A stretch of DNA of 64,000 nucleotides from an uncultured Holophagales bacterium (GTDB taxonomy: Bacteria; Acidobacteriota; Thermoanaerobaculia; Multivoradales; UBA5704): contig CAWJGT010000003.1 of the NCBI GenBank assembly GCA_963842525.1, positions 480,001-544,000 of the forward strand. Direction: 5' to 3'. The notes beneath the pieces are model-generated. The model saw nothing but the letters and a program-made list of their open reading frames with translations. It did no database searches and was not told the DNA's origin. Numbering within the stretch: position 1 is the first letter of the stretch; each line of letters begins with the position of its first letter. Shown here piece by piece: positions 2 to 64,000 of this stretch. A program made the position numbers and the translations under genes.

Positions 2-8857
<8,856 letters not shown>

Positions 8858-22800: not shown

Positions 22801-24407
22801 GGCTCCAGGCCGTCGGCCGCGACGACGATTTCTTCGCCCTCGGCGGCCACTCGCTGCTGGCCACGCAGCTTGTCTCGCGCCTGCGCTCGCTACTCGGAGT
22901 GGAGATGCCGCTGCGCACCCTCTTCGAGCACCCGACCCTCGGCGGGCTCGCGGCGTGGCTGGAGGGAGAGCGCCAGGGCACCCTATCCGCCGAGCCTGTC
23001 CTGCCCGTGCCCCGCGACCGCGACCTGCCCCTGTCCTTCGCCCAGCAGCGCCTCTGGTTCCTCGATCAGCTCGAGCCCGGGAGCTCGGCCTACAACATCC
23101 CCTCTGCTCTGCGTCTCACCGGCGCGCTCAACCGGGAAGCTCTGGCCGCCAGTCTCGACGAGGTGGTGGCGCGCCATGAAACACTGCGCACCACCTTCGG
23201 CTTTGCGGGAAGGGAACCGGTCCAGCGCATCGCTCCGCATGGCTCCCGGTCCCTGCCGTTGATCGATCTGGCCGGCCTGCCAGAGGCCCGCCAAGAGGGG
23301 GAGGCCCGGCGCCTGGCCGACGAAGAGGCGCGCTCCCCGTTCGACCTGTCGCGCGGCTCTCTGATCCGCAGCGCGCTCCTGCGTCTGGCGGACCAGGAAC
23401 ATCTCCTGCTTCTGACGGTGCATCACATCGTCTGCGACGGATGGTCCAGCGGAATCCTGGTCCGCGAGATGGCGGCGCTCTACGCGGCCTTCGCGACCGG
23501 CCGCCCCTCTCCCCTGCCACCGCTGCGGGTGCAGTACGCCGACTTCGCCGCCTGGCAGCGGGACTGGATGCGCGGCGCGGCGCTGGAGGCCCAGGTCTCG
23601 TACTGGCGGGAACGCTTGGCGGGCGCACCTCACCTGCTGGAGCTGCCCGTCGACCGGGAGCGGCCGGCCGTCCAGAGCTTCCGCGGCGGCTGCGAGACCT
23701 TCACCTTCTCGCGGGAGCTGGCCACGTCTCTCGAGAGACTCGCCCGCAGTGAAGGCGTCACGATGTTCATGGCCCTGCTCGCGGGCTTCAAGGGGTTGCT
23801 GCACCTCCGCAGCGGAGTGACCGACGTCGTGATCGGAACCAACGTGGCCAACCGGAGCCGGCCGGAGATCGAGCCGCTGATCGGTTTTTTCGTCAACATG
23901 ATTGTGCTGCGGACCGACCTCTCCGGGGACCCGACGTTCCGCGAGTTGCTCGCGCGGGTCCGGGAGGTCGCCCTGGGGGCCTACTCCCACCAAGACCTGC
24001 CGTTCGAGCGGCTGGTCGAGATCTTGCGCCCGGAGAGGAGCCTGAGCCGTCAGCCGCTCTTCCAGGCCGTGTTCTCGCTGCAGAACGCACCGGCCGGAGA
24101 GGCCGTCGATCTCGCGGGCCTGGATCTCCGCTCGATGGCGATCGAAAGGAAGTCCGTGAAATACGACCTGGTGGTGAACATGTGGCACGCCGAAGGGCGG
24201 CTCGCGGGCTCCATGGAATACAGCCGGGACCTCTTCGAGGCCGAGTCGGTGCGGCGATTGTGGCAGCAGCTCGGGCGCCTCCTCGAGAGCGCCGTGGCAG
24301 CGCCCGACACCCGGCTGCGGAGCCTCAACATCCTGTCGCAGCGGGAAAGAGAGCTGCTCAGGGTCGAGGTGCGGGTGGAGGAGCTGGCCGAGGAGTTCTC
24401 TTTTTAA
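13905..24407 (+). CDS. NRPS1 segment d: C-A(X)-T-C-A(Pro)-T-C-A(Val)-T-C(terminal), stop TAA 24405-24407
   Basis: 3500-aa ORF with three A-T units (codes DFWHLGQIDK, DVQFVAQVVK, DALWLGGTFK) and a final complete C domain (HHIVCDGWS) ending ...EELAEEFSF. No TE or E domain. Confidence 0.95.
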   Translation: MHHIVSDGWSSSVLIRELGALYPAMSVGGAGQPSPLPELPVQYADFAVWQRGWLQGEALESRLRYWRERLAGAPPVLELPADRPRPAVAGVRGGLCRRELGADLTARLQAFGRRQGTTLFMTLLAAFKALLGRSTRQEDLLVGTPVANRNRAEVEDLIGFFVNTLVLRTDLSGDPTFLELAGRIRSEALAAYAHQDLPFERLVEELSPERSLAYTPLFQVMVVLQNTPAGELALPGLTLAPLDTAGGERSAKHDLTLFLQPAGETLDAASVFRRDLFDHPTVERLLGHFTNFLKAAVADPENSIGELPLLSEPESAQLLLEWNDTGAPQARLCLHEIFAAQAERTPAAIAVEIEEEALTYRELAERAGRLADRLRALGVGPDVLAGICLERSFDLVTALVATLAAGGAYLPLDPEYPRERLALLLADARPAVVLTRSDLRPLFGEPPSGAPCVLCVDEEGLPVAASPISAVQPANLACLLYTSGSTGRPKGVMATHAGMVNRLLWAQRVYPLGPQDRVLQSASFSFDFALWEIFAPWLAGARVVLARPGGHRDSAYLVDLIASRGITVAHFIPSMLRVLLEEEGVERCRSLRLVLSGGEPLSVELRERFFRRLGAELRNQYGPTEASIDVNHWLCHPREGSGAVPIGRPVDNTRILLLDRGLRPVPAGVPGELCIGGVALARGYLGRPELTAERFVPDPWCPGERLYRTGDVARYRSDGAVEFLGRLDHQVKIRGFRIEPGEIEAVLESLAGVRAAVLEVRGEGPSRRLVAYVVPQEPPTDLTLAGLRAALQGLLPEFMVPSAWVLLPELPLTPNGKLDRRALPEPEAPAGRETTDAVPRTPVEELIAGIWADLLGYARVGIHDDFFDLGGHSLLATRVVSRIRAACRVELPLRTLFEAPTVAGLAAAVEAAVWTGKTASPPILPRPQSGEAPLSFAQQRLWFLAQLEPESAAYNVPAAVRLTGALDRAALAAALGGIVARHEALRTSFPTVAGEPVQKVAPADGPFELPLIDLGALSEPVAEARRLVAAEALRPFDVTRGPLLRGALLRLEAAEHIALLSMHHIVSDAWSSGVLIRELAVLYAACREGRPSPLPPLPVQYADFAVWQRSWMQGEALESLLAFWRERLAGAPAVLELPADRPRPAIPSGRGGLRTARIDGGLAGALAQLGRREGLTLFMTLLAAWDTLLFRLSGQTDLVVGSPIANRNRVETEGLIGFFTNTLALRARLAPEMGFRELSERVREEALLAFSHQDLPFERLVEELAPERSLAHTPLFQVLFTLQNAPTGKLALAGLTLAPLEPVGRTAKFDLSLFLAETGNGLSAMLEFAADLFDATTASRILERFRTVLEGVVEDPEGSLAELPLLPAAERHQILAEWNDVSVWGGSPCVHHLVEAQARWTPEAIAVLAPDGTELSYGDLDRRADRLARRLRELGMRPDDRVGVCLERSWEGVAALLAVLKAGGCYLPLDPAYPQERLAFMLADAAAPVIVTRDRLAAALPPHGAHVLSLDSGWPEQENGRDLPTVGPDHLSYVIYTSGSTGRPKGVALPHRTLANLIAWQIGASAAPAGRTLQFASPSFDVSVQEVFATWAAGATLVLVPEEVRSDAEALLRRLREARVERLFLPFVALQQLAEAAVGEDEELSLREVVTAGEQLQITPEVRALFSRLPGCVLRNQYGPSETHVVTEASLWPGGVEEWPALPPIGRPIAATAVHLLDPRGLPVPAGVPGEVHLGGAGLARGYLGQPELTAERFVPDPWGRGDRLYRTGDLARRRPDGEVEFLGRIDHQVKIRGFRVELGEIEAALATHPAVREAVVVVQGRGASKRLVACILPAEGVQELREPLRAHLRERLPDYMVPSAFVAVERFPLTPSGKVDRRALAASGPELQEANTAGAAPRTPVEEVLAGIFGEVLRLASVSVRDNFFDLGGHSLLATRVVSRIRAAFGIELPLRALFETPAVEGLARTVEASLRSGVAPAPPIVPVGRDGDLPLSFAQQRLWFLDQMEPGSPAYNMPAAVRLSGRLSPAALEASLAEIVARHEVLRTRFEQAGGEPVQRILPAGGRDLPLADLAGLPEGAREAEAHRLAAAEAVRPFDLARGPLLRGVLLRLEAGEHVALLTMHHIASDGWSMDLLVRELAALYPAFAAGLPSPLPPLPVQYGDFAVWQRSWLQGETLEAQLAFWRQRLAGAPPVLELPTDRPRSAVRSGRGAVLPFRLSGELAGTLAAFSRQEGATLFMVLLAALETLLFRITGLDDLVVGAPIANRNRAEIEGLIGFFVNTLALRGRLSPRGSFRDLAARTRDETLGAYAHQDLPFERLVEELAPQRDLGRTPLFQVMLVLQNAPGGALELPGLTLAPLPVEASTAKHDLTLALAERGARLTGALEYDRDLFDRATAVRLVGWLETLLEGAAADPGLSLVELPLLSAGERRELLEDWNHAATAYPREATLRELFEAQADLVPDAVAVVFGAEAVTYRELDRRANRLAHRLRTLGVGPEVLVALLAERSLELIVALLGVLKAGGAYAPLDPAFPPERLALLLEDLGAPVVLAQEHLAERLPAGARAVRLVEVCAGGSEERLSVPVAAAGLAYVMYTSGSTGLPNGVAVVHRAVVRLVRETGYALFGPGEVWAQLAPMAFDASTLEVWGALLHGGRLTVLPPGALSLGELRHVLATYEVTSLWLTAGLFHQMAEEGLTGLGAVRQLLAGGDVLSPERVRRALASLPGCRLINGYGPTENTTFTCCHAMSRPDEVVSPVPLGRPIANTRVWLLDAELNPVPVGVAGELYAGGDGLARGYLNRPALTAERFVPDLHSGEPGGRLYRTRDLARWRADGTVEFLGRLDQQVKLRGFRVEPGEVEAALAALPAVHEAAVVVQGTGADRRLAAFVVGEVDRAELRRHLEPRLPAWMVPSAFVVLEALPLTPNGKVDRRALAALETAVERAADLVLPRTPMEELLSGMWAEVLRLQAVGRDDDFFALGGHSLLATQLVSRLRSLLGVEMPLRTLFEHPTLGGLAAWLEGERQGTLSAEPVLPVPRDRDLPLSFAQQRLWFLDQLEPGSSAYNIPSALRLTGALNREALAASLDEVVARHETLRTTFGFAGREPVQRIAPHGSRSLPLIDLAGLPEARQEGEARRLADEEARSPFDLSRGSLIRSALLRLADQEHLLLLTVHHIVCDGWSSGILVREMAALYAAFATGRPSPLPPLRVQYADFAAWQRDWMRGAALEAQVSYWRERLAGAPHLLELPVDRERPAVQSFRGGCETFTFSRELATSLERLARSEGVTMFMALLAGFKGLLHLRSGVTDVVIGTNVANRSRPEIEPLIGFFVNMIVLRTDLSGDPTFRELLARVREVALGAYSHQDLPFERLVEILRPERSLSRQPLFQAVFSLQNAPAGEAVDLAGLDLRSMAIERKSVKYDLVVNMWHAEGRLAGSMEYSRDLFEAESVRRLWQQLGRLLESAVAAPDTRLRSLNILSQRERELLRVEVRVEELAEEFSF

Positions 24408-24420
24408 AGGGATCAGCGAA

Positions 24421-24426
24421 AGGAAG
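24421..24426 (+). promoter_or_regulatory. Putative ribosome-binding site of the radical SAM gene
   Basis: AGGAAG ending 5 nt before ATG 24432, in a 24-nt intergenic gap. Confidence 0.55.
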
Positions 24427-24431
24427 CGGCA

Positions 24432-26063
24432 ATGTCCAAGAACGGGCGAATCGATTGCGTCACGATTGGCTACTACGAGCCGAGATTCGATCAATACGAG
24501 AAGCAGATCCGCGCCTTCGGCGAGGACTCCGAAGCCTACCGGGACCTGAAGTTCAGCTTCGTGGACCTCGGTGACAGGAAGCTGACGTATGCGGAGCTCC
24601 TGAGCCATGGGCACCGGTTGGCGACGGGCGGCGCGGCGGACGCGAAGGACGAGTTCATGTCCGGCGACATCCCGAACCTCGCGGCCGCCTACCTCACACA
24701 TTTCCTGCGCCGCCGGGGGATGAACGCCAGGTACATCAACCTGTTCCTGCATGAAAAGGAAAAACTCAGAGCGTATCTCGAGGAGGACCCGCTCTGTGTG
24801 GCGATCACCACGACCTTCTACAGCCTGAACTTCCCGGTCATCGAAATGGTGCGCGAGATCAGAGCGCACAACGCCGAGACCAAGATCGTGGTCGGCGGGC
24901 CTCTGGTAGCCAATCATCACCGCAGATATCCCCCCGACCAGCTCCTGATCGCGCTCGACGACATGGAGGCGGACATCTACGTGATCGAATCGCAGGGGGA
25001 GCTCACGCTGTTCCAGATCGCGCAGTGCCTGCGGGAAGGCGGCGACCTGTCCCGGGTGCCTAACATCGTCTACCGCGACGAGAGCGGGAAGCTGCAGAGG
25101 ACGGAGATCGCGCACGAGACGAATTCGCTCGACGACGATTCCGTCGACTGGCGCCTGTTCGGCGAGGAGGAGCTCGGCGCCACCCTGCAGACCAGGACGG
25201 CGCGGAGCTGTGCTTTCAGTTGCGCCTTCTGCGCCTATCCAACGCGGGCCGGCAAGCTCACCCTCGCCAGCCTGGAGACGATCGAGAGAGAGCTCGACGC
25301 CATGCGCGACGTGGGCGGAATCCGCAACGTCGTATTCATCGACGATACCTTCAACGTCCCCCTGCCACGTTTCAAGGACATCTGCCGGTTGATGATCCGG
25401 AAGCAGTACGGCTTCAACTGGTTCTCCTACTTCCGGTGCAGCAACTCCGACGAAGAGGCGATCGAGCTGATGGCACGAAGCGGTTGCAAGGGGGTTTTCC
25501 TGGGCATCGAATCCGGCTCGCCGGCGATTCTCAAGAACATGGACAAGCACGCGGCGACCGAACAATACCGGAAGGGCATCACTCTGTTGCGGCAGCATGG
25601 GATCCTGACCTTCGGCTCGTTCATCACCGGCTTTCCGGGCGAGTCGGCGGAGACGGTGCGGGAGACCGTTGACTTCATCAAAGAGACGCACCTCGACTAC
25701 TACCGATCCCAGATCTGGTACTGCGAGCCCGGAACGCCGATCTACCACCGCAAAGAGCAGTACGGCATCGAGGGGGAAGGGTTCAGTTGGAGCCACGACA
25801 CGATGGACAGCCTGGAGGCGATGGATCACATCGATCGCGCCTTCCTGGAGATCCGCGAGTCGCGTTGGCTCCCCCAGTGGTCTTTCGACTTCTGGATCAT
25901 CCCTTATCTGATGGGCAAGGGGCTGTCGCTGGAACGCTTCGCGAGATTCACCGACGAGGCGAACGGCATGCTGGCCCTCGAGATCGCCTCCGTTCCCGGC
26001 CATCAGAAGAGCCGGTTGCAGCGGGAGCGCCTGGGAAGGATCGTAGAGATCCTCAAGAACTGA
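24432..26063 (+). CDS. Cobalamin-dependent (class B) radical SAM protein, PhpK-like putative methyltransferase
   Basis: CxxxCxxC motif RTARSCAFSCAFC (Cys codons 25209-25232). N-terminal B12-binding-type region (LAAAYL...VAITTTFY...KIVVGGP...YVIESQGE). Class-B core motifs FIDDTFN, VFLGIESGS, SFITGFPGE. Overall pattern recalled as similar to PhpK/BcpD; not confirmed by search. Confidence 0.9.
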   Translation: MSKNGRIDCVTIGYYEPRFDQYEKQIRAFGEDSEAYRDLKFSFVDLGDRKLTYAELLSHGHRLATGGAADAKDEFMSGDIPNLAAAYLTHFLRRRGMNARYINLFLHEKEKLRAYLEEDPLCVAITTTFYSLNFPVIEMVREIRAHNAETKIVVGGPLVANHHRRYPPDQLLIALDDMEADIYVIESQGELTLFQIAQCLREGGDLSRVPNIVYRDESGKLQRTEIAHETNSLDDDSVDWRLFGEEELGATLQTRTARSCAFSCAFCAYPTRAGKLTLASLETIERELDAMRDVGGIRNVVFIDDTFNVPLPRFKDICRLMIRKQYGFNWFSYFRCSNSDEEAIELMARSGCKGVFLGIESGSPAILKNMDKHAATEQYRKGITLLRQHGILTFGSFITGFPGESAETVRETVDFIKETHLDYYRSQIWYCEPGTPIYHRKEQYGIEGEGFSWSHDTMDSLEAMDHIDRAFLEIRESRWLPQWSFDFWIIPYLMGKGLSLERFARFTDEANGMLALEIASVPGHQKSRLQRERLGRIVEILKN

Positions 26064-26067
26064 CGGT

Positions 26068-29000
26068 CGAAATGGATGGATGTCAAATGATCCGAGATGA
26101 AGTCCAGGAGAAGCACGAGGCCGGCTCCCACGAGGTGTGGTTGGAGAAGGAGGCGGCCTACTGGTCGCAGAAGCTGGCCGGCCCGCCCGAGGCCGTGGGG
26201 CTCCCTCTCGACAGGCCTCGCCTTTTGGTCTCGGGTTTCCGACAGGCCCGCGTAGAGATCCCCGTCGAGGAGGAGGTCCAGAGGGGCCTGCTGCAGCTCT
26301 GCAAGGGCAACGACACGCTGCTCCTGGTCGCCTTCGTGGCCGTAGTCAAGGCCTGGCTGCACAGGTCCACGGGCGCCGAGGACATCATTGTCGGTACGAC
26401 GATCCACCGGCGCTACGCGGAAGCTCGCCTCGCTCAACAAGATCTTGTCCCTGCGCGATCGCGTGACCGGCGCCTCGATGCTCAAGGATCTCCTGCTCCA
26501 GGTCAAGGAAACGGTTTCGGAAGCGTACGCGCACCAGAAGCTTCCCTTCGACCGGCTGCGCAAGCTCCTGGCAGCCGCGCTGCCGGATCCTGTCTCGCCC
26601 CTGTTCCGGGTCGCCGTCCTGATGGAGCAGATCAACGATGTCGCGAGCCTCGAGCGCCTGCTCCCCGATGTGACGTGGATCGTGAGCCGGGCCGACGAAC
26701 AGATCCACTGCCGGATCGAGTACAACGCGGAGCTCCTGCAGGCAACTTCCGTCCAAGCGTTCGGCGAGGCCTGCATCCGGATCGCATCGGCACTGGTCGC
26801 GGACCCAGGAGCCCGGGTCGGGGAGCTTGCGCTCCTGGCGCCGGAGCGGGAACGCGAGCTGCTGCACGATTTCAATGCGAGCGGTCGGGAGTATCCCCGG
26901 GACTGCACGATCCACGAGCTCTTCGAGCGCGAGGCGGGGCGCTCCGGTGAGAAGACGGCCGTCCTCTGTGGCTCCTTGGAGCTCTCCTACCAGGAGCTGA
27001 ACCGCCGGGCCAACCGCCTCGCCCATCACCTGCGACGGCTGGGCGTCGGAGCGGGTGCGCGGGTGGGAATTCTGCTCGACCACTCTCCCGAGGCGGTGGT
27101 CGCAATCCTCGCGGTGCTCAAGGCTGGAGGGGCTTACGTCCCCTTCGACCCCTCCTCGCCAGCAGAGCGCTTGGCCTTCATGCTGGCGGACGCAGAGATC
27201 GCCGTGCTGCTGACGCAGGACCGGCTGGCGCAGCGGTGCAACGCCGGCGAGGCCGTGGTCCTGCGCCTCGACGCGGACCAGCAGCTCTTCGCCCAGGAGA
27301 ACACCGAAAAACTGCCGGCCGGCGCCATGCCACAGGACGTGGCCTACATCATCTACACCTCGGGATCGACCGGGCGGCCCAAGGGGGTCCTGATCTCGCA
27401 TTCGTCTCTGGTGAACTATATCTGGTGGTCGAAGGATGTCTACCTGCGAGGAGAAACGCTGGCTTTTCCCTTGTACTCCTCACTCGCTTTCGACCTGACG
27501 ATCACATCGTTTTTCACCCCTCTGGTCACAGGCAACAGACTTGTCATCCATCGCCCCGAGGAAGGCAGGACATCGGTTCTAGGTGTCTTGCAGGACGATC
27601 GGGTAGAGATTCTAAAGCTGACTCCCAGCCACCTCGCTCTGATCCAGGACCGCGACAACCGGGGCTCGAGCATCCGCCGGCTGATCGTCGGCGGTGAGGC
27701 CCTGGAGTCTGGATTGGCGAGACGGGTGTACGAGAGCTTCGGGGGCGAGGTCGAGATCTTCAACGAGTATGGTCCCACCGAGGCCACGGTGGGCTGCATG
27801 ATCCACCGGTTCGATCCTGAGGCGCAGGACTGTGCGTTCGTGCCCATCGGCCGGCCGGCGGCCAATACGCGGATCTACCTCCTCGGCAAGGATCTCAAGC
27901 CTGTGGGGATGAACGCGCCGGGAGAGCTGTACATCTCCGGGGACGGGGTCGCGCAGGGATACTGGCGGCGCGACGACCTCACCGCCGAAAGATTTCTCGC
28001 AGACCCCTTCCACGCGGGCGGCCGGATGTACAAGACCGGCGACCTGGCCCGCTGGCTGCCGGAGGGCGTGATCGACTTCCTCGGGCGCAAGGACGGGCAG
28101 ATCAAGTTCCTCGGGCATCGGATCGAGCTCGACGAGATCCGCTGGGCGTTGGGCCAGCATCGAAAAGTGCGCGACAGCGTGGTCTCGGCCACCGAGGACG
28201 AGAACGGCAATCGGGTTCTCCTGGCCTACTACGTGGCCCGCGAGGCGCTGGACGTCGCGGAGCTGCGGAGTTTTCTTTCGAGCTACATCCCCGAGGAGAC
28301 GATTCCAAGCTTCTTCGTTCACATGAAGCGGCTGCCGCTGACGCTCAACGGCAAGTTGAATCATCAGGCTCTGCCGTCCCTGAGCGAGGCGAAAAAGCAG
28401 CTTCGGCAGGAGATCGTGGCTCCCCGCAATGCCACGGAGCTGCGGGTCGCGGAGATCTTCCGGCAGGTTCTCGGCCTCCAGCAGGTCGGCATCCACGAGA
28501 GCTTTTTCACCCTGGGCGGCCATTCGCTGCTGGCCACGCAGGTGACATCGCGCGTGCGCGACGGCTTCCACCTGGAGCTGCCGTTACGGGCGTTGTTCGA
28601 GACTCCGACCGTCGCGGATCTTGCGGCGAGGATCGACGCGGCCGGCAACTCCGGGCATGAGCTCAAACTGCCGCCTCTGGTGCGCTGTCCGCGTGACGGC
28701 GACCTGCCGCTCTCCTTCGCCCAACAGAGGCTCTGGTTCATCCATCAACTGGAGCCCGAAAGCCCGGCCTACAACATCCCCGCCGCGGTGCGCCTGACCG
28801 GCAGACTGGACCAGGCAGCGCTGCTGGCCGCTCTGGGCGAGGTGGTGGCCCGCCATGAGACGCTGCGCACCTCCTTCGGCGAGGTCGGAGGGAAGCCGGT
28901 GCAGCGCATCGCGCCGCCGGCGCAGCTCGCCGCGCCGCTCCTCGATCTGACGGACCTGCCGACCGCGCAGCGCGAGGCGGAGACCCGTCGCCTGGTGACG

Positions 29001-32000
29001 GAGGAGGAGCGCCATCCCTTCGATCTGGCGCGCGGCCCCCTCGTGCGGGTCGCTCTGCTGCGCCTGGCTTGCGAGGACCATGTCCTGCTGTTGACCCTGC
29101 ACCACATCGTTTCCGACGGCTGGTCGACGGGGGTGCTGATCCGCGAGTTTGGAGCGCTCTATCCGGCGTTTCACGAGGGCCGGCCCTCGCCGTTGCCGCT
29201 GCTTCCGGTCCAGTACGCCGATTTTGCTCTCTGGCAACAGACATGGATGTCGGGAGAGGCGCTGACAGCCCAGCTCTCCTACTGGTTGGAGCGTCTGGAA
29301 GGCATCCCGGCCGAGATCGAGCTGCCTACGGACCACCCTCGGCTTGCCGTCCCCAGCGGGCGCGGCGGTTCCCAATTGCTCCGGCTGCCCAGGGGTCTGT
29401 CGGATGCGCTGGCCAAGCTCGGCGCGCGGCACGGTGCCACGCTGTTCATGACTCTGCTTGCGGCCTGGAAGGTGCTGCTCTCCCGCTACAGCGGCCAGAC
29501 CGATGTCGTGGTGGGCTCTCCAATCGCCAACCGGAACCGGACCGAGTTGGAATCCCTGATCGGTTTCTTCGTCAATACCCTCGCGTTGCGCACCGATCTG
29601 TCGGGCGGCCCCGACTTCCGCGATCTGGTCGGCAAGGTCCGCGAGGTGACGCTTTCGGCCTATGCACACCAGGATCTGCCGTTCGAGAGGCTGGTCGAGG
29701 AGATGGCGCCCGAGCGGGTCCTGTCCCGCACGCCGATCTTCCAGGTCGTGTTTGCGCTCCAGAACGCTCCCGCGAGCACCCTCGACCTGCCCGGTCTCAC
29801 CCTGTCCCGGCTCGTTCTCGAAGGGGGCACGGCCAAGTTCAACCTGATGCTCTCGCTCGCCGAGAGCGAGGCAGGGCTGGCTGGCAGCCTGGAGTTCAGC
29901 CGCGATCTGTTCGACCCGGCGACCGTGGCCTGTCTGGCCGGCCACTTCCAGACGCTGCTCGCGGCCATCGCCCTGGATCCTGCACGACGGACCGAAGATT
30001 TGCCGCTGCTTTCTCCGGAGGAGCAGGGCCAGTTGCTGGTGGAGTGGAACCGGACGGCCGGGGACTATCCGCGCGAGGCGACCTTGCCCGAGCTGTTCCA
30101 GGACTGGGCGAGCCGGACGCCGGAGGCCGTTGCGGTGGTGTTCGGGGACGAGGAGCTCACCTACCGGGAGCTGAGCCGCCGGGCCCGCCGTGTGGCGCGC
30201 CGGCTGCGCACGCACGGAGTCGGACCGGAGGTGCTCGTCGGGCTCTGCGCCGACCGCGGTGCGGATCTGGTGGCGGGCATGCTGGGCGTTCTCGCGGCCG
30301 GCGGTGCCTATGTTCCGCTCGATCCGACCTATCCTCGGGAGCGGCTGGCCTTCATGCTGGAAGACGCCGCGACTCCGGTCGTGCTCGTGCAGGGATCGTG
30401 GGCCGAGAGGCTGCCCGCCTCGCGGGCGGAGTTGGTGATCCTGGAGGAGGCCGTCCGGGACGAGTCGATGGAGGAGGCAAGGGAGCGGGCCCTGCCGGTC
30501 GCCTGGGCCGAGAGCCTAGCCTATGTAATGTACACCTCGGGCTCGACGGGGAGGCCGAAGGGGGTGGCGGTATCTCATCGCGCCATCGTCCGCCTGGTCC
30601 GCGACACGGATTACACCCAGGTGGAGCCTTCGGACCGGATGGCGCAGGTCGCGAGCTCCTCGTTCGACGCGGCGACGTTCGAAATCTGGGGAGCTCTCCT
30701 GAACGGCGCCTGCCTGGTGGGCATCGAATCGCCGGTGGCCCTCTCACCCGGCGCCCTGGCCACCTGCATCGCGGAGCAAAGGATCAGCGCTCTATTCCTG
30801 ACCACGGCGCTCTTCCAGCAGATTGCCCGGGAGGCTCCAGAGGCATTCCGGCCGTTGCGCCATCTGCTCTTCGGTGGTGAGGTGGTGGATCCGCGATGGG
30901 TGCGCGAGGTGCTGAAAAAGGGCGCTCCCGAGCGGCTCCTCCACGTCTACGGCCCGACCGAGAACACGACCTTCTCGTCCTGGTACTTGGTTGAGCAGGT
31001 CTCGGAACGCGCGACGTCTGTGCCGATCGGTCGCCCAATCCGGAACACTCGGGCATATGTGCTGGACGGGCATCTGCGACCCGTCCCCGTCGGGGTGAGC
31101 GGGGACTTGTACCTCGGCGGAGACGGGCTGGCCCGCGACTACCACAACCGGCCAGACCTGACAGCGGAGCGCTTTGTGCCTGACCCGTCGGGCTACGAGC
31201 CGGGAGGGCGGCTCTACCAGACCGGCGACCGGGCGCGCCATCTCGTGGACGGCACGATCGATTTCCTGGGCCGGCTGGACCACCAAGTGAAGCTACGGGG
31301 GTTCCGGATTGAGCTGGGGGATGTTGAAGCGGCCTTAGCCGAGCTTCCCGGGGTCCGGCAGGCCCTGGTCGTGGTTCGGCCAGGAGCGGACGGGAGCATC
31401 GATAAGCGGCTGGTCGCCTATGTCGCGGGGGAGGCTGAGAGCGCAGAGCTGAGGCGGCATCTCGAAACCAAGCTGCCGAGCTTCATGATCCCCTCTGCCT
31501 TCGTCGTGCTGCCGTCGTTCCCCCTGACCTCGAACGGCAAGGTGGACCGGCAGTCCCTTCCGGAGCCGGAGTGGGGGAGAGCGGAGGCAGAGGTCGACTC
31601 GAAGGCGCCGTGCACACCGGTGGAGGAGATGCTGGCCGGGATCTTTGCAGAGGTGCTGGGTCTCAGCAGAGTGGGTGTGCGCGAAAGCTTCTTCGATCTC
31701 GGTGGACATTCGCTGCTGGCCACGCAGGTCGTGTCCCGGATACGCGCCGCCTTCGGCATTGAGCTGCCGCTGCGGGTGCTGTTCGAGGCTCCGACCGTGG
31801 AGGGTCTCGCTCCGGCCGTCGAGGCCGCGATGCGGTCCGGGATGGCCCCGGTGCCTCCGATCGTCCCAATGGAGAGGGACGGCGAGCTGCCGCTCTCCTT
31901 TGCCCAGCAGAGGCTCTGGTTCATCCATCAACTGGAGCCCGAAAGCCCGGCCTACAACATCCCGGTTGCGGTGCGCCTGACCGGCAGGCTCGACCGGAGG

Positions 32001-35000
32001 GCCCTGCGAGCCGCCCTGTGCGGGGTGGCGGCACGCCACGAGACCCTGCGCACCACCTTCGGCGATCTCGCCGGGGAGCCGGTGCAGCGCATCGCGCCGC
32101 CGGTGCTGATCGCGGTGGCGCTGATCGACCTGGCGGATCTGCCGGCCGAGGCGCTCGAGGCCGAAGCCCGTCGCCTGATCGCCGAGGAGGAGAGGCGCCC
32201 GTTCGATCTGACCCACGGACCCCTGCTGAGGGTCGAGCTGCTGCGGCTGGACGAGCAGGAGCACGCCCTGCTGCTGACTCTCCACCACATCATCTCGGAC
32301 GGCTGGTCGATGGGGGTGCTCATCCGCGAGCTGGCGACCCTCTACGCAGCGCACATCGCGGACCGCCCATCTCCGCTGCCTCCGCTGACCGTGCAGTACG
32401 TCGATTTCGCGCTCTGGCAGCGGGAGTGGATGCGCGGCCAGGTGCTCGAAGGCCAGCTTCGCTACTGGCGCGAGAGGCTGGAGGGAGCCCCTCGGGTGCT
32501 GGAGCTGCCCGCCGACCGCCCTCGGCCAGCCGTCGCGAGCGGGCAGGGAGGATTGCGCTCCTCATATCTACCCGCCGAGATCGCCGGGTCTCTCTCGGCC
32601 CTGGCGCAACGGCAGGGCGCCACGCTGTTCATGATCGCGCTCGCCGCCTGGAAGGCCCTCCTCTCGCGTCTCACGGGGCAGAACGATCTGGTGGTGGGGA
32701 CTCCGATCGCCAATCGCAACCGGTCCGAGGTTGAGGCTCTGATCGGCTTGTTCGTCAACACTCTTGCCTTGCGCACCGAGCTGCCGCCAAGTCTCGACTT
32801 CCTCGCTCTGGTGCGCCGCATCCGCGAGGCGACGCTCGGGGCCCTGGCTCACCAGGACCTCCCTTTCGAGCGCCTGGTCGAGGAGCTGTCGCCCGAGCGG
32901 AGCCTGGCCCATACGCCGCTGTTCCAGGTGATGCTGGCGGTGCAGAACGCCTCCCACGAGGTCTTGGATCTGCCCGGCCTGACCCTCTCGCCGCTCCGCG
33001 TCGAGATGACCACCGCCAAGCTCGATCTGTCGCTGACTCTCGGCGAGACGCCGGCCGGTCTCGCCGCGCACCTGGAATTCAACCGCGATCTGTTCGACGC
33101 CGCCACGGCCGACCGGCTGCTCGGCCATCTCGAGACCCTGCTTGCCGCCGCTGTCGACGATCCCGGCTGCCGCGTCGTCGACCTGCCGCTGCTCCGCGAG
33201 GCGGAGCGACGTCAGCTCCTGGCCGCCGGGCGAGCGGCGGCCCCGGTCGACCTGCAGTCCTGTCTGCACGGGCTCTTCGAGGCCCAGGCGAGGCGCGAGC
33301 CGGATGCGGTCGCGGCCGTCTGTGAAGGACGGAGTCTGAGCTACGGTGAGCTCGACCGCCGGGCCACGCGCCTGGCGTACCGGTTGCGGCGGCTCGGAGT
33401 GGGGCCGGAGGTCCCGGTGGGCGTCTGCCTCGCATCCTCTCTGGAGCTGGTGACGGGGCTGGTCGCCGTGCTCGCGGCCGGCGGCGTGTACCTGCCGCTC
33501 GATCCGGCCTATCCCCGCGAGCGCCTGGCCTTCATGCTGAAGGACGCGGGCGCGCCGGCGGTGCTGACCCTGGAGCGCCTGGCGGAGAGCCTGCCTGGCG
33601 AGGCCGCGCGCCTCCTCTGCCTCGATGCGCCTGTGGACGCAGACGCGGAGGATCTGGCGGCGCCACGCCACAGCGCCGCTCCGCAGAGCCTCGCCTATCT
33701 GATCTACACCTCGGGCTCCACAGGGCGGCCCAAGGCGGTCGGGGTCGAGCACGGGCCGGCCGCTGGTCACATGCTGGCCGCCGCGCGGCTCTTCGGCCTC
33801 GACCGCGGCGACCGGGTGCTCCAGCTCGCGTCGCCGAGCTTTGACACGTCCCTGGAGGAGATCCTGCCGGCCCTCATCTCCGGCGCCGTCGTGGTGCTGC
33901 GCGGTCCGGAGCTTTGGGAGCCTGCCGCCTTCCTGGACAAGCTGGCGCAGCTTGGCATCACCGTGCTCGACATCCCCACGGCCTACTGGCACCAATGGGT
34001 GGTGGAGTGCGAGGGGATGGATCGACCCGCCGACCTAGGGCTGCGCACCGTCGCCGTGGGCGGCGAGGCCATGTCGCCTGAGGCGGCGCGCCTCTGGTGG
34101 CGGACGCCGCTCGCGGACATCCCCCTGCTCAACACCTATGGGCCGACTGAGGCGATCGTCACCTCCACCTGGCTGCGGGTGGACCGCGAGGCCGCCTCCT
34201 CCGCCGCCGGCTCGGTCCGTATCGGCCGTCCGCTCGCCGGCCGCGACGCCCTCGTGCTGGATCGCGCGGGGAGCCTCGCGCCTGTGAACGTGCCCGGCGA
34301 GCTGTACCTGGCCGGTCTGCTGCTGGCGCGCGGCTATCGGGGCCGGCCGGATCTCACGGCCGAGAGGTTCGTGCCTGATCCGTACGCCTCCCTGCCTGGC
34401 GCCCGGCTCTACCGTAGCGGCGACCTCGCGCGCTGGCGTCCGGACGGGACCCTGGAGTTCCTCGGCCGCGCCGACCAGCAGGTGAAGATCCGGGGGTTCC
34501 GCGTGGAGCCGGGGGAGATCGAGGCCGCTCTTGCCGGGCATCCGAAAGTGCGCGAATCCGTGGTTCTGGCTCGCGAAGACGTTCCCGGCGAAACGCGCCT
34601 CGCCGCCTATCTAGTGGCGCGCCCGGAAGCGCTTCTCACGGCGGCGGAGCTTCGCGACCACCTGCGGCGGAGTCTGCCGGAGCACATGATCCCTGCGGCG
34701 TTCGTGGTGCTCGATGCGCTGCCGCGCACCTCGAATGGGAAGCTCGACCGCAAGGCCCTGCCGGCGCCGGGCGAGCCCCGGGCCGGAGAGCGCGGAGCCT
34801 CTTCACCACGCACGATCACCGAAGAGATCCTGGCGGGCCTCTGGCAGGAGATCCTGCGGCTCGACTGCACTGTCGGCATCCACGAGAGCTTCTTTGAGCT
34901 CGGAGGACACTCCCTGCTGGCCACCCGGATGCTCTCGCGGATCCGGGGGGTGTTCGAGGTCGACCTCCCCCTGCGCACCGTATTCGAGTCGCCCACCGTT

Positions 35001-36550
35001 TCCGGTCTGGCCGCCCTCGTCGAGGAGGGGAAGAGAACGGCCCGCGGCATGCGGATCCCTCCCTTCGAGCCCGTCGCGGCGCGCGTGGAGGTACCCCTCT
35101 CCTTCTCCCAGCAGCGCCTCTGGTTCATGGACCAGTTGGAGCCTGGAAATCCTTTCTACAATGTCGCCGCAGCCTTCGACCTGGAGGGGCCGCTGGATTT
35201 GGCGGTCCTGGAGCGGTCCCTCAGTGAGATCGTGCGCCGGCAAGGCTCTCTGCGCACTGTTTTCGCGAGACGGAGCGGCCAGAACGTGCAACGGGTGCAG
35301 CCGCCCGCGCCGGTGATCCTGCCGATCGCCGACCTGTCCATCCTGGGCGAGGAGGCGCAGCAGGCCGAGGTACGGAGACTGGTCTCCCAGGAGGCGCGGG
35401 CCTCCTTCGACCTCGCGCGTGGGCCGCTCTTCCGCATCCGGTTGCTGCGGCTTGGCGAGAGCCGGCACGTCTTCCTCCTGACCCTGCACCACATCATCAC
35501 CGACGGCTGGTCGACCGACGTGCTGACCCGCGAGCTCGTGGAGCTGTACGAGAGCTTCTCGCGGGGCGAAAGCTCGCCGCTGGCGGACCTCCCCCTCCAA
35601 TACACGGATTTCGCCGTCTGGCAGCAACAGTGGCTGCGCGGGGAGGCCCTGGAGACCCAGCTCGCCTACTGGCGCAGGCAGCTCGCTGATGCGCCTGCGG
35701 TCACCCGGCTCCCCACGGATCGCCCGCGGCCCGCGGTCCAGAGCTACCGGGGAGGCCGGCAGAGGTTCGAGCTGTCGGCCGAGCCGTGCCAGCGGCTGCG
35801 TGAGCTCAGCCGGCGGGAGGGAGTGTCCCTGTTCATGACCGTGTTGGCCGCCTACCAGGCCTTCCTGTCCTCCTGCGCGGGAGAGGAGGTCGTGATCGTG
35901 GGGTCTCCGGTCAGCTATCGCAATTGGGCGGAGGTCGAGGGGCTGATCGGCTTCTTTGCCAACACGCTCCTGTTCCGCGGTGATGTCGCCGGAAACCCCA
36001 GCTTCCGGGAGCTGCTCGGGCGGGTCCGCAAGATGGCGCTGGATGCGTTCGCCCACGAGCACGTGCCGTTCGACAAGCTGGTCAGCGAGCTGCGCCCCGA
36101 GAGAAACCTGGGCTACAACCCGCTGTTCCAGGTGGGTTTCGCGTTCCAGACGGCTGCCGAGACCAGCCGCGGGAGATCCGATCTCCTCGTACGCCCGTTC
36201 GGATTCGAGCTGGAGACAACCCAGTTCGATCTCAACCTGGCCGTGATCGACACCGGCGCGAAGCTGGTAGGCGACCTCCAGTTCAGCCGGGACCTTTTCG
36301 AAGAGATCACCGTCGACCTGATGCGGGAGCAGCTCCAGGAGCTGATGCAGAGGGTGGGAAGCGATCCGGAGATCCGGATGAACGATCTGAGACCCCTTTT
36401 GGCCGAGGTGAGCAGACGGCGGCTGGGCGCGTTGAAGCGGGAAGCAGCCAGACCACCACACCGGGCCTCAGGAGTGGAAGACGACAGGCTGTCGTCGTGA
36501 CCGGGAAGTAAGCCAGCGGAGATAGCACATGGAGAAGGTCGTCGAAGGTT
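26068..36550 (+). repeat. Tandem gene duplication, copy 1 (~10.5 kb)
   Basis: Aligns with 36572-47063 at offset ~10503-10513, except for the swapped block 31628-34527. Confidence 0.9.
26087..36500 (+). CDS. NRPS2: half-C-A(Asn)-T-C-A(Ile)-T-C-A(Lys/Arg-type)-T-C(terminal); frameshift at ~26421, tail probably also frameshifted (true stop likely TAA 36509-36511)
   Basis: N-terminus MIRDEVQEKHE from ATG 26087 (in-frame ATG also at 26072) matches paralog 36591. An extra A at 26421-26422 shifts into ORF 26388..36500. Codes DLTKIGEVGK (Asn), DAFFLGVTFK (Ile), DTEDAGTVTK (acidic pocket, basic substrate). C motifs HHIVSDGWS, HHIISDGWS, HHIITDGWS. Confidence 0.92.
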
Positions 36551-36590: not shown

Positions 36591-39500
36591 TTGATCAGAG
36601 ATGAAGTCCAGGAGAAGCACGAGGTCGGCTCCCACGAGGCGTGGTGGGAGAAGGAGGCGGCCTACTGGTCGCAGAAGCTGGCCGACCCGCCTGAGGCCGT
36701 GGGGCTCCCGCTCGACAGGCCCCGCCCTCTTGTCCCGGGTTTCCGGCAGGCTCGCGTGGAGGTCGGCGTCGCAGAGGAGGTCCAGAGGGGTTTGCTGCAG
36801 CTCTGCCAGGGCAACGACACGCTTCTCCTGGTCGCTTTCGTGGCCGTGGTCAAGACCTGGCTGCACAGATCCACGGGCGCCGAGGACATCATTGTCGGTA
36901 CGACGATCCACCGGCGCTACGCGGAGCTCGCCTCGTTCAACAAGGTCTTGTGCCTGCGCAACCGCGTGACCAGCGCCTCGACGCTCAAGGACCTCCTGCT
37001 TCAAGTCAAGGAGACGATTTCAGAAGCGTACGCGTACCAGAAGCTCCCCTTCGATCGGCTGCGCAAGCTCCTGGCACCCGCGCTGCCGGATCCTGTTGGG
37101 CCCCTGTTCCGGGTTGCCGTCCTGATGGAGCAGATCAATGACGTCGCGAGCCTCGAGCGCCTGCTCCCCGATGTGACATGGATCGTGAGCCGGACCGACG
37201 AACGGATCCACTGCCGGATCGAGTACAACGCGGAGCTTTTCCAGGCAGCTTCCGTCCGGGCGTCCGGCGAGGCCTGCATCCGGATCGCATCGGCGCTGGT
37301 CGCGGACCCAAGAGCCCGGATCGGGGAGCTTGCGCTCCTGGCGTCGGAGCGGGAGCGAGAGCTGCTGCACGATTTCAATGCGACCTGTCGGGAGTATCCC
37401 CGGGACTGCACGATCCACGAGCTCTTCGAGCGCGAGGCCGGGCGCTGCGGTGAAAAGACGGCCCTCCTCTGCAGCTCCCTGGAGCTCTCCTACCAGGAGC
37501 TGAACCGCCGGGCCAACCGCCTCGCCCATCACCTGCGCCGGCTGGGCGTTGCAGCGGGTGCGCGGGTGGGGGTCCTGCTCGACCACTCTCCAGAGGCGGT
37601 GATCGCAATCCTCGCGGTGCTCAAGGCCGGAGGGGCCTATGTGCCCTTCGACCCCTTCGCCCCGGCAGAGCGCCTGGCCTTCATGATGGCGGACGCGCAG
37701 ATCGCAGTGCTGCTGACCCAGGACCGGCTGGCGCAGCAGTGCAGCGCCGGCGAAGCCGTGGTCCTCCGCCTCGATGCGGACCGTCAGCTCTTCGCCCAGG
37801 AGAGCACCGAAAAACCGCCGGCCGGCGCCATGCCGCAGGACGTGGCCTACATCATCTACACCTCGGGATCCACCGGGCGGCCCAAGGGGGTCCTGATCTC
37901 GCATTCGTCTCTGGTGAACTACATCTGGTGGTCGAAGGATGTCTATCTGCGCGGCGAGGCGCTGGCGTTTTCCCTGTACTCCTCGCTGGCCTTCGACCTG
38001 ACGATCACATCGCTCTTCACTCCTCTGGTCACGGGCAACCAGCTCGTCATCTATCGCTCCGAGGAGGGCAGGACGCCGGTTCTCGACGTCGTGCGGGACG
38101 ACCTGACAGAGGTCCTCAAGCTGACTCCCAGCCACCTCGCTCTGATCCAGGAGCACGACAACCGAGGGTCGCGGATTCGCCGGCTGATCGTCGGCGGCGA
38201 GGCCCTGGAGACCCGGCTGGCGAGACGAGTGTACGAGAGCTTCGGAGGCAAGATCGAGATCTTCAACGAGTATGGCCCCACCGAGGCCACGGTGGGCTGC
38301 ATGATCTACCGGTTCGATCCTGAGGCGCAGGACCGTGCGTTCGTGCCCATCGGCCGGCCGGCGGCCAATACGCGGATCTACCTCCTCGACGAGGACCACA
38401 AGCCTGTGGGGATGAACGCGCCGGGAGAGCTGTACATCTCCGGGGACGGCGTGGCGCAGGGATACTGGCGCCGCAACGATCTAACGGCCGAGAGGTTCGT
38501 GGCCGACCCCTTCCACGCGGGCGGCCGGATGTACAAGACCGGCGACCTGGCCCGCTGGCTGCCGGAGGACGTGATCGACTTCCTCGGGCGCAAGGACGGA
38601 CAGATCAAGTTCCTCGGGCATCGGATCGAGCTCGACGAGATCCGCTGGGCGTTGGGCCAGCATCGAAAAGTGCGCGACAGCGTGGTCTCGGCCACCGAGG
38701 ACGAGAACGGCAATCGGGTCCTTCTGGCCTACTACGTGGCCCGCGAGGCATTGGACGTCGCGGAGCTGCGGAGCTTTCTTTCGAGCTACATCCCCGAGGA
38801 GACGATCCCAAGCTTCTTCGTTCACATGAAGCGGCTGCCGCTGACGCTCAACGGCAAGTTGAATCATCAGGCTCTGCCATCCCTGAGCGAGGCGAAAAAG
38901 CAGCTCCGGCAGGAGATCGTGGCTCCCCGCAATGCAACGGAGCTGCGGGTCGCGGAGATCTTCCGGCAGGTCCTCGGCCTCCAGCAGGTCGGCATCCACG
39001 AGAGCTTTTTCACCCTGGGCGGCCACTCGCTGCTGGCCACGCAGGTGACATCGCGCGTGCGCGACGGCTTCCACCTGGAGCTGCCGTTACGGGCGTTGTT
39101 CGAGGCCCCGACGGTCGCGGATCTTGCGGCGAAGATCGACGCGGCGAGCCATGCGGGGCATGAGCTCAAGCTGCCGCCTCTGGTGCGCTGTCGGCGTGAC
39201 GGCGACCTGCCGCTCTCCTTTGCCCAGCAGAGGCTCTGGTTCATCCATCAACTGGAGCCCGAGAGCCCGGCCTACAACATCCCGGTTGCGGTGCGCCTGA
39301 CCGGCAAGCTCGACCGGAGGGCCCTGCGAGCCGCCCTGTGCGGGGTGGCGGCACGCCACGAGACCCTGCGTACCACCTTCGGCGACCTCGCCGGGGAGCC
39401 GGTGCAGCGCATCGCGCCGCCGGCGCAACTCGCCACACCGCTCATCGATCTGACGGACCTGGCGACCGCGCAGCGCGAGGCAGAGACACGCCGGCTGGCG

Positions 39501-47030: not shown

Positions 47031-47034
47031 GGAG
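47031..47034 (+). promoter_or_regulatory. Putative ribosome-binding site of NRPS4
   Basis: GGAG 7 nt before ATG 47042. Confidence 0.6.
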
Positions 47035-47041
47035 ATAGCAC

Positions 47042-62589: not shown

Positions 62590-64000
62590 CACGGCGCGGA
62601 CGGCGCGGGAGGTCCCGCCGGATGCGACGCTCCACGGCCTCTTCGCCGAGCAGGCGAGGCGTTCTCCGTCCGCCCTGGCGGTCGTCTTCGGCCGCGAGGT
62701 GATGACCTACGGCGAGCTCGACGACCGCGCCAACCGCGTAGCCCGTCATCTCGGCGAGCTTGGGGTCGGACCCGAAGCGCGGGTGGGCATCGCGATGGAA
62801 CGCTCGCTCGAGCTCGTCGTGGCTCTGCTCGCCACTCTGAAGGCCGGAGCCGCGTACGTGCCTCTCGATCTCTCCTATCCCGCGGAGCGGCTGGCCGCCA
62901 TGGCCGAGGATGCCTTCGGCGGGCTCGAGCGGCCTGTGCTGCTGGTGCAGTCCGCGCCGGCCGCCCTGCCGGCGGCGCTCCGCGCGCAAGGTGTGCAGGT
63001 GGTCTCCATCGACGACATCCCCGAGCCCGCCGGCGGCAGCAGGGATGACGATCCGGCCGGGGCCGCCAGTCCGGACGGCCTGGCCTACGTGATCTTCACC
63101 TCCGGGACGACCGGCCGGCCCAAGGGTGCGATGAACACCCACCGAGCCATCGGCAACCGCCTGCTGTGGATGCAGGATTCCTACAACCTCGGAGCCGGCG
63201 ACCGCATCCTCCAGAAGACGCCCTTCAGCTTCGACGTCTCGGTGTGGGAATTCTTCTGGCCCCTGCTCACCGGCGCCCGCCTGGTGCTCGCGCTGCCGGG
63301 CGGCCATCACGACCCGTCCTACCTGGCGCGCCTGATCGCCGAGGAGGGGGTGACGACGGTGCACTTCGTGCCCTCGATGCTCCGGCTCTTCCTGGAGGAG
63401 CCCGCCGTCGCATCCCTCGCCAGCCTGCGCCGGGTGATCGCGAGCGGCGAGGCCCTGCCGGCCGACCTCGCGGCCCGGTTCCATGCCCGCATGCCGGAAA
63501 AAACCGAGCTGCACAACCTCTATGGTCCGACGGAGGCGGCAGTCGATGTCACCTCCTGGCCGTGCGGGCACGGCGATGCGCGGACCTCCATCCCGATCGG
63601 CCGGCCCGTCGCGAACACCCGCATCCACCTCCTCGACCGCGGCTGCCTGCCGGTGCCGGCCGGAGTTGCCGGGGAAGCTCTATATCGCCGGCGTCCAGGT
63701 CGGACGCGGGTACCTCAACCGCCCGGGGCTGACTGCGGAGCGGTTCGTCCCCGATCCCTGGCCGGGCACGTCGCCGGGAAGCCGCCTCTATCGGACGGGC
63801 GACCTGGCTCGCCGGCTGTCCGACGGCACCCTGGAATACCTGGGGCGGATCGACCATCAGGTCAAGGTCCGCGGCCACCGGATCGAGCCGGCGGAGGTCG
63901 AGGCGGCCCTGCTGCGGCATCCCGGCCTTCGGGAGGCCGCGGTCGTGGCGCGCACCCGGGGTGGTGAGACCTCTCTGGCCGCCTATGTGGTCGCCGCGGA
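62285..64000 (+). CDS. NRPS4 segment d (3'-partial): end of C and A(Ser); frameshift at ~63675, runs off the window
   Basis: AKFNL, FTSGTTGRPKG, code DVWHISLVDK. After removing the extra A at ~63675 the frame continues GELYIAGVQVGRGY...LYRTGDL...QVKVRGHRIE to the window end. Confidence 0.88.

Follow-up and report, generated by a model that had tools for sequence, protein, structure and literature searches.

What does a B12-dependent radical S-adenosylmethionine (SAM) enzyme, assigned to a family named for the methylation of phosphorus, do between two proteins of a peptide assembly line? The question is raised by a 64,000-nucleotide stretch of DNA, referred to below as the window, from an uncultured Holophagales bacterium of the Acidobacteriota (GenBank assembly GCA_963842525.1, contig CAWJGT010000003.1, positions 480,001 to 544,000 of the forward strand). 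Here a B12-binding radical SAM gene lies between a nonribosomal peptide synthetase (NRPS) ending in a condensation (C) domain and a second one, NRPS2, which begins with the C-terminal lobe of a C domain (half-C), an adenylation (A) domain with an asparagine code and a carrier (T) domain. In a preliminary description of the window, made from its letters alone, it was proposed that an enzyme of the PhpK family has been repurposed to methylate carrier-bound Asn at two positions. The arrangement of enzyme, half-C and Asn or Asp (Asx) module is both real and recurrent, and it is undescribed in the literature searched. That the enzyme C-methylates carrier-bound Asn, probably at the beta carbon and in trans on the assembly line, is given roughly even odds (about 0.5), judged from gene order and homology.

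A radical SAM gene between a C domain and a half-C

The enzyme consists of a B12-binding domain (PF02310, residues 78-165) followed by a Radical_SAM domain (PF04055, residues 257-416), and the cluster cysteines of its CxxxCxxC motif (C260/C264/C267) are invariant across 46 aligned relatives. It matches TIGR04479, the NCBIfam model for the PhpK family P-methyltransferase, with 635.3 bits against a cut-off of 600 and over model positions 1-501 of 504, which bears out the family assignment made at the outset. Relatives score 637-658 bits on the same model and a 42% identical paralogue 584, below the cut-off (six tested, range 584-658). Close relatives are very numerous in the database, and the best 120 listed are mostly 65-77% identical, with one at 63%; the named sources among them are mostly Acidobacteriota, and the entries are automatically labelled P-methyltransferase. 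No phosphonate gene lies in the window, as was first observed: only NRPS genes are found there besides the enzyme. In the 96%-complete genome as a whole no PEP mutase (TIGR02320) reaches the cut-off of 319.55 bits, the best match, on another contig, scoring 46.8.

The NRPS upstream does end in a full, canonical C domain, with the motif HHIVCDG and the end of the gene at 24407. This is presumed to be the working C domain of the split Asn module. The gaps of 24 and 23 nt on either side of the radical SAM gene were confirmed by direct reading, and no promoter-like or terminator-like sites were found in either of them, in keeping with one operon.

Downstream, NRPS2 starts with a truncated C-like domain, as had been described: the Condensation match sets in only at position 191, and what is left is the C-terminal lobe, the N-terminal lobe bearing HHxxxDG being missing. 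The half-C is predicted to be unable to catalyse condensation. A split C domain, with the radical SAM gene inserted into it, is ruled out: the domain upstream is whole, and the clade from which the half-C comes is old and stands apart (see below). The half-C is under purifying selection; the ratio of nonsynonymous to synonymous substitution rates (dN/dS) between the copies in NRPS2 and in NRPS3, a later protein of the same assembly line, is 0.33, and that of the A domains 0.17.

The nine pocket positions of the A domain codes were mapped from motif landmarks. The code so obtained for the first A domain of NRPS2, DLTKIGEVG, falls in the Asp/Asn section of a published compilation. The atypical subdomain remarked on earlier is also present: the A10 region reads PLTLNGKLNHQALP, against the canonical PLTPNGKVDRRALP, and the AMP-binding_C match reaches only 24.6 bits. 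The T domain that follows is presumed to be the site at which the residue is modified.

Recurrence of the arrangement

Relatives of the enzyme were sought in one genome per species, giving 62 loci, or 61 once a spurious 24% match had been dropped. Most are from metagenome-assembled genomes of Pyrinomonadaceae and Blastocatellia, with Archangium, Vitiosangium and Myxococcus in addition. NRPS domains are found on the same strand at 60 of the 61 loci. A half-C lies directly downstream of the enzyme gene at 22, with a canonical C domain directly upstream at 21 of these, and at a further 15 the downstream position is held by a full-length, low-scoring C-like domain lacking HHxxxDG, here called dead. 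Half or full-length, a non-catalytic C-like domain directly follows the enzyme gene at 37 of the 61 loci. The next A code is readable in 28 of the 37 and is an Asx code in 26, evenly divided between Asn (13) and Asp (13). Co-occurrence of homologues with such modules was the test to which the original proposal had submitted itself, and they do co-occur.

The two types of C-like domain differ in their partners. At half-C loci the code is that for Asn in 13 of 15 readable cases, the two others (L032, L033) being nearly identical to each other and Val-like in code; in one of them the module after that is an Asn module. At loci with a dead full-length domain it is the Asp code DLTKVGHVG in 13 of 13 readable cases. 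Where a canonical C domain follows the enzyme gene (two loci), the next code is not Asx. Asn-type and Asp-type contexts are scattered among one another on the tree of the enzyme, with some ten changes needed for each, so that the link between enzyme and Asx module is not one inherited block but has been retained or remade repeatedly. A variant A10 (…LPLTLNGK-I/V/L-N/D-x-x-ALP) is common to the A domains partnered with the enzyme, and the remaining Asn modules of these loci have the canonical form of this region. The pocket codes of the partnered A domains are ordinary Asn or Asp codes, which fits modification of the residue after loading.

The half-C was also followed independently of the enzyme. 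Metagenomes were scanned with an alignment of 24 half-C domains, yielding 60 loci with 63 half-C instances, of which 11 had too little upstream sequence and 52 could be assessed. The enzyme gene is directly upstream of the half-C in 27 of the 52, with a partial match in one more, and in four a TauD-family domain stands in this position instead. Among 33 readable A codes after a half-C, 26 are for Asn, two for Asp and five for other residues.

TauD hydroxylases and dead C-like domains

In eight Asp-type genome loci, the upstream NRPS extends some 360 residues beyond its last C domain, and the four of these extensions that were scanned are TauD-family dioxygenase domains. The gene order at the TauD loci is C-TauD / radical SAM / dead C-like-A(Asp)-T. 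The genome that holds the window has a second NRPS cluster of this kind (G000:C9:1570000-1605000; L072, L073), with the order C-TauD / radical SAM / dead C-like-A(DLTKVGHVG)-T; its radical SAM paralogue is 60% identical to the window enzyme, and its A domain has the variant A10. It amounts to a replicate of the association within one genome. Further on in the same cluster, there is a C-TauD / dead C-like-A(DAKDLGVVD) junction without a radical SAM gene. A search for TauD in the window and in 34 kb of flanking sequence found none. A dead C-like domain is present there, at the start of NRPS4 (gene from 47042), and is followed by a frame-broken A domain with the code DAWQFGLID (47069-50012). The same C / dead-C-A(DAWQ.GLID) junction is also seen at L019, L030 and L069.

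When C-terminal lobes were placed on a tree, the half-C domains came out as a clade apart (SH-aLRT 99), with canonical C domains as its sister group, and the Asp-type dead C-like domains, the TauD-linked ones and the first domain of NRPS4 group together (SH-aLRT 100). The possibility that the half-C is a truncated member of the TauD-linked clade is ruled out by this separation.

These data bear on a comparison drawn in the preliminary description between the half-C and the interface (I) domains that pair with standalone hydroxylases. As to layout the comparison was apt, with TauD fused upstream in the eight Asp-type loci and in the second cluster, and four half-C domains found after TauD in metagenomes. 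As to kinship it fails, the half-C lying outside the TauD-linked, interface-like clade on a tree whose TauD-linked members came from the scanned loci. Like an I domain, the half-C lacks HHxxxDG and stands directly ahead of an Asx A-T pair; it is not full-length, its Condensation match running only from 187/191 to 456. The half-C thus appears to resemble an interface domain by position, without membership in the TauD-linked clade.

A candidate route to C-methylated asparagine

In the pathway proposed here, the A domain that follows the enzyme gene would first load ordinary L-Asn onto its own T domain, in module 1 of NRPS2 and likewise in module 1 of NRPS3. The cobalamin-dependent radical SAM enzyme would then C-methylate the Asn while it is carrier-bound. 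The beta carbon is the most likely target because it is the only sp3 carbon of the side chain, and in the parallel clusters it would be the point of attack of a TauD hydroxylase as well; methylation at the alpha carbon is less likely. A carrier-bound substrate has a precedent, itself a proposed one, in CysS (see below). Finally, the complete C domain ending the preceding protein would join the modified residue to the growing chain. In this scheme, the half-C is a conserved lobe that may act as an adaptor or platform, contacting the tailoring enzyme ahead of Asn modules whose residue is modified on the carrier, whether by this enzyme or, elsewhere, by a TauD hydroxylase.

The assembly line, its frame breaks and its duplication

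The window has a GC content of about 72%, and its forward strand is nearly one continuous NRPS assembly line, the domain order of which was annotated with hidden Markov models (HMMs) trained on C, A and T domains taken from the window itself (Table 1). Besides the radical SAM gene this strand holds NRPS domains throughout, in agreement with the early remark that no other tailoring gene is present in the 64 kb. Five large open reading frames on the minus strand over the region have no Pfam match. Annotation of the flanks places the start of the line about 5.7 kb ahead of the window, with a C domain, and its end about 8.9 kb past it, with KS-AT-T-C-A-T-TE-DUF6625 followed by a MacB/FtsX-type exporter. 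Window and flanks together hold roughly 21 amino-acid modules and one ketide module. The upstream NRPS has at least eight modules within the window, and its frame is interrupted near 8300, 11470 and 13860. What was first delimited as NRPS1 (13905-24407) is the tail portion of this longer gene with its three further frame breaks: the terminal C domain stands, the extent of the gene does not.

Table 1. Coordinates of the features discussed in the text (positions are those of the window)
Feature	Position	Strand	Details and basis
Terminal C domain of the upstream NRPS	22989..24338	+	own C HMM 2-450 of 450, 687.6 bits; Pfam Condensation 4-455 of 456
Spacer, 24 nt	24408..24431	+	purine-rich AGGAAG ahead of ATG; read directly
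B12-binding radical SAM gene, 543 aa, intact	24432..26063	+	PF02310, PF04055, TIGR04479
Spacer, 23 nt	26064..26086	+	before the NRPS2 start codon (ATG 26087); read directly
NRPS2, whole	26087..36500	+	half-C-A(Asn)-T-C-A(DAFFLGVTF)-T-C-A(DTEDAGTVT)-T-C, terminal C full; HMM annotation, code reading
Half-C of NRPS2	26087..26840	+	Pfam Condensation 191-284 + 297-456; own HMM 200-290 + 305-450
Extra A shifting the NRPS2 frame, inside the half-C	26421	+	one-column gap against NRPS3
A domain, NRPS2 module 1, DLTKIGEVG (Asn)	26907..28505	+	nine pocket positions
T domain of the Asn module	28413..28643	+	GGHSL; motif, Pfam and own HMM
Duplication scar	36518..36549	+	NRPS4 ribosome-binding region and first 7 codons, then TAG; exact 32-nt match
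NRPS3, tandem duplicate of NRPS2	36591..47024	+	half-C 36648-37343, A(Asn) 37410-39008, T 38916-39149, two further modules, terminal C; HMM annotation
Full-length dead C-like domain at the N terminus of NRPS4	47069..48334	+	LPALCADAG in place of HHxxxDG

Eight frame breaks lie inside NRPS domains in the 64 kb (8248-8302, 11459-11478, 13860, 26421, 49422-49426, 61729-61739, 62261-62265 and 63666-63676). Their number suggests indel errors of the assembly, rather than a decayed cluster, as the simplest reading, and the same reading is thus the simplest for the break in NRPS2. With the extra A at 26421 skipped, the first 840 codons of NRPS2 are free of stops. In metagenome run X1, the sole run with contigs over this position (two contig records), the whole of the depth there (15.6/15.6) is without the extra A. 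One of the contigs is 4 letters off NRPS2 in 252 and the other 22 off, about as the NRPS3 copy would be. As these contigs lack the base, the extra A is probably an assembly error, or else a strain variant.

The DNA of NRPS2 is 88% identical to that of NRPS3 across the opening 5.7 kb and 94% identical across the closing 2.1 kb, and the third A domain has been exchanged. An exact 32-nt repeat, for which no chance matches are expected, occurs only at 36518-36549 and 47031-47062, and marks the junction of the tandem duplication that made NRPS3. The half-C of NRPS3 is intact (Condensation positions 187-456), and its first A domain has the code DLTKIGEVG as well. The half-C-Asn unit is therefore present a second time, as was reported. 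Its recurrence is not an independent one, because NRPS3 is a tandem duplicate of NRPS2, and the earlier suggestion that the enzyme acts at two positions draws its support from a recent gene duplication.

Alternative explanations

A number of observations speak against on-line methylation of Asn, and most of them favour one or other of the competing explanations considered below. Two are of a general kind. The first is the set of frame breaks just described, which, if real, would mean that the cluster is dead. The second is that no column of the enzyme alignment separates enzymes with Asn-type neighbours (24) from those with Asp-type neighbours (15), the lowest overlap being 0.21.

The strongest competitor concerns the half-C. 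It may be no more than a remnant with a structural or docking role, steadying an A domain that has its C domain on a different protein, with the enzyme finding its carrier unaided; this is rated a serious possibility, somewhat short of an even chance. In the metagenomes, 11 of the 52 assessable half-C domains follow a plain canonical C domain and nine have nothing upstream, so that the half-C is not specific to this enzyme. At NRPS4 and several other loci a C domain is likewise followed by a dead C-like-A unit without an intervening tailoring gene, and selection on the half-C is weaker than that on the A domains. A mere leftover is harder to reconcile with a clade so overwhelmingly coded for Asn, or with the presence of a tailoring gene, enzyme or TauD, directly upstream in 31-32 of the 52. 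Some of the C / half-C junctions are, moreover, second copies in clusters that hold the enzyme (NRPS3 in the window; L060, L089). The half-C is mainly a feature of Asn modules, usually but not always behind a tailoring gene.

It is improbable, though by no means baseless, that the enzyme methylates free Asn, Asp or a precursor, that a special A domain subfamily then selects the methylated building block and that the half-C has no role in tailoring. The partnered A domains are a recognisable subfamily by virtue of their variant A10, and at 19 of the 61 loci no NRPS domain is found within 700 nt downstream of the enzyme gene (farther off in 13, none in 6), one more locus being cut by a contig end. 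The closest relative of the window enzyme (L009, 75%) lies between two aspartate/ornithine carbamoyltransferase-like genes, with an ornithine cyclodeaminase in the neighbourhood and the nearest NRPS domain 7 kb away, and might act on a free substrate. Glutamate mutase is a known route to free 3-methylaspartate, and at L021 the enzyme gene stands beside a fused glutamate (methylaspartate) mutase and is accompanied by a racemase; two B12 enzymes related to methylaspartate are thus found side by side. Set against this, the nine pocket residues are those of ordinary Asn or Asp codes, and the A10 variant is outside the pocket. The gene has its place between a C domain and a half-C or dead C-like-A-T unit at 37 of the 61 loci, and in other loci the same position is occupied by TauD, which belongs to a family that acts on carrier-bound Asp. 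The full gene order at L021 (3895-10830) is fused glutamate mutase, Asp/Glu racemase, PLP enzyme, phosphoglycerate-mutase-like gene, enzyme and a polyketide synthase module.

Slightly less probable again is that the enzyme modifies another residue or a whole peptide, turning the upstream Val into tert-leucine or acting on a released lipopeptide, and that its position is merely a point at which the operon is split. In ribosomal peptides, class B radical SAM enzymes are known to methylate Val at the beta position. The module just upstream of the enzyme gene in the window has the Val-like code DALWLGGTF, and three half-C modules right after the enzyme (L032, L033, L088) carry Val-like codes. Against this, the upstream module has very different codes from one locus to the next (Val, Thr, Ser, Ala, Cys-like, Gln-like, Pro-like and Asn), and the code downstream is Asx in 26 of 28 readable cases.

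Least probable by some way is that the enzyme performs other radical chemistry on Asx, such as epimerisation, desaturation or rearrangement: class B radical SAM enzymes do include non-methylating members and the next-best NCBIfam matches are a mixed set (HpnJ, ApyD, BchE and AprD4, all at about 80-108 bits), but the only family above its cut-off is the methyltransferase family TIGR04479, on which all six relatives tested score 584-658 bits.

Distribution and surroundings of the enzyme

The distribution of the enzyme is patchy. A close copy is found in none of five genomes of the same genus, copies of 62-63% identity are found in two of 12 genomes of the same order, and among sampled genomes of the family that holds L011, nine of 121 have a match above the cut-off. 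Some of the matches in this last sample (G095, G133) reach 705-728 bits on TIGR04479 in open frames of 800-900 aa, which may be fused forms of the enzyme. The low GC of the window gene was considered as a mark of recent transfer and rejected as one, its third-position GC of 0.86 matching that of the NRPS genes (0.80-0.91). As third-position GC is unchanged, the dip in GC over the gene results from amino-acid composition.

The window genome has a third paralogue (G000:C34:532782-534299; L074), 42% identical and scoring 584 bits, which stands behind an NRPS ending in a C domain. It is this type (relatives G001-G015), and not that of the window, that occurs in seven of the 17 further genomes from the taxonomic family. 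The genome also has a cobalamin riboswitch (G000:C11:2684-2900, 120.5 bits), and no match to CobQ, the cobyric acid synthase, was found in it. From these two observations, the organism may import cobalamin for its three B12 radical SAM enzymes.

At two loci, the enzyme gene is flanked by paralogous proteins of about 725-739 aa (L013:5472-9876 and 11646-13844; L014:7743-9959 and 11696-13873), for which no Pfam family was found at E<=1e-5. Next to them are a carbamoyltransferase of the NodU/CmcH type and an Asn module that is the last in its protein. Genes resembling carbamoyltransferases are also found near the enzyme in L029 and L009.

Significance

If on-line methylation is correct, C-methyl-asparagine and C-methyl-aspartate are to be predicted in the products of such clusters. 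It would also supply a rule for genome mining, namely a PhpK-family gene followed by a C-like domain, half or dead, and by an Asx A domain whose A10 is of the variant type. With this rule a tailoring step could be annotated that recurs in the NRPS clusters of soil Acidobacteriota, which are large and uncharacterised. The arrangement would show for a second time, with another class of enzyme, how domains derived from condensation domains can be adaptors for tailoring enzymes. Many database entries carry the automatic label P-methyltransferase, in most cases probably wrongly.

A broader and more doubtful extension can be suggested. The numerically dominant role of the PhpK family would be the on-line C-methylation of carrier-bound Asn or Asp in NRPSs of soil Acidobacteriota and some Myxococcota, with recruitment via a truncated C-lobe, which would join the X and I domains as a third kind of recruitment domain derived from condensation domains. 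The P-methylation carried out by PhpK would be derived, and would act on an NRPS-tethered, aspartate-like substrate. In Asp-type clusters, TauD and the radical SAM enzyme together would give beta-hydroxy-beta-methyl-aspartate. If P-methylation did arise from such tethered chemistry, the debate over the physiological substrate of PhpK would be settled.

Comparison with known systems

PhpK and BcpD, of the phosphinothricin tripeptide (bialaphos) pathway, are the nearest characterised relatives by family model; TIGR04479 and the architecture of B12-binding and radical SAM domains are common to them and the window enzyme. The PhpK pathway also employs an NRPS. The window enzyme differs in being embedded between NRPS genes, in being tied to Asn and Asp modules and in belonging to a genome in which no PEP mutase or other phosphonate gene was found, the pathway that defines the function of PhpK thus being absent. 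Its expected target atom is carbon, not phosphorus, and its kinship to PhpK, as given by the family model, has no direction from which the repurposing first proposed could be read. The physiological substrate of PhpK is described as still debated in a review.

In siderophore NRPSs, Asp beta-hydroxylases have interface domains as their partners (Reitz et al. 2019, as cited in antiSMASH 8.0). As in the window, a non-catalytic C-like domain precedes an Asx A-T pair there and a tailoring enzyme is found just upstream. The window half-C differs from them in that it is a C-terminal lobe only and forms a separate clade, and in that its partner is a radical SAM enzyme rather than a hydroxylase.

Searches of the literature returned nothing that links a PhpK-family enzyme to NRPS Asn or Asp modules, no natural product with a C-methylated asparagine and no radical SAM route to C-methyl-Asn or C-methyl-Asp. 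Matches for methylasparagine, to judge from listings, are apparently N-methyl forms. In the available text of a 2026 review of B12 radical SAM enzymes the words aspartate, asparagine and NRPS do not occur, and the accessible parts of reviews of these enzymes describe no member that acts on Asp or Asn or is embedded in an NRPS in this manner. The same 2026 review includes PoyC and BotRMT1-3, beta-carbon methyltransferases of ribosomal peptides. They share with the present proposal the methylation of an unactivated sp3 carbon in the side chain of an amino-acid residue. Their substrates are ribosomal precursor peptides, whereas carrier-bound monomers are proposed here.

CysS, of the cystobactamid pathway, is a class B radical SAM methylase that is active on pantetheine-linked substrates and is thought to work in trans on a carrier-bound NRPS intermediate. 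Like the proposed enzyme, it is a C-methyltransferase of an NRPS pathway. It is set apart, by its description, in that it iteratively methylates an aromatic methoxy group and has no known relation to an Asx module or a half-C. The tailoring of an NRPS by a class B radical SAM methylase is therefore the known part of the system described here, and what would be new, as a hypothesis, is the likely Asx substrate together with a truncated, adaptor-like domain.

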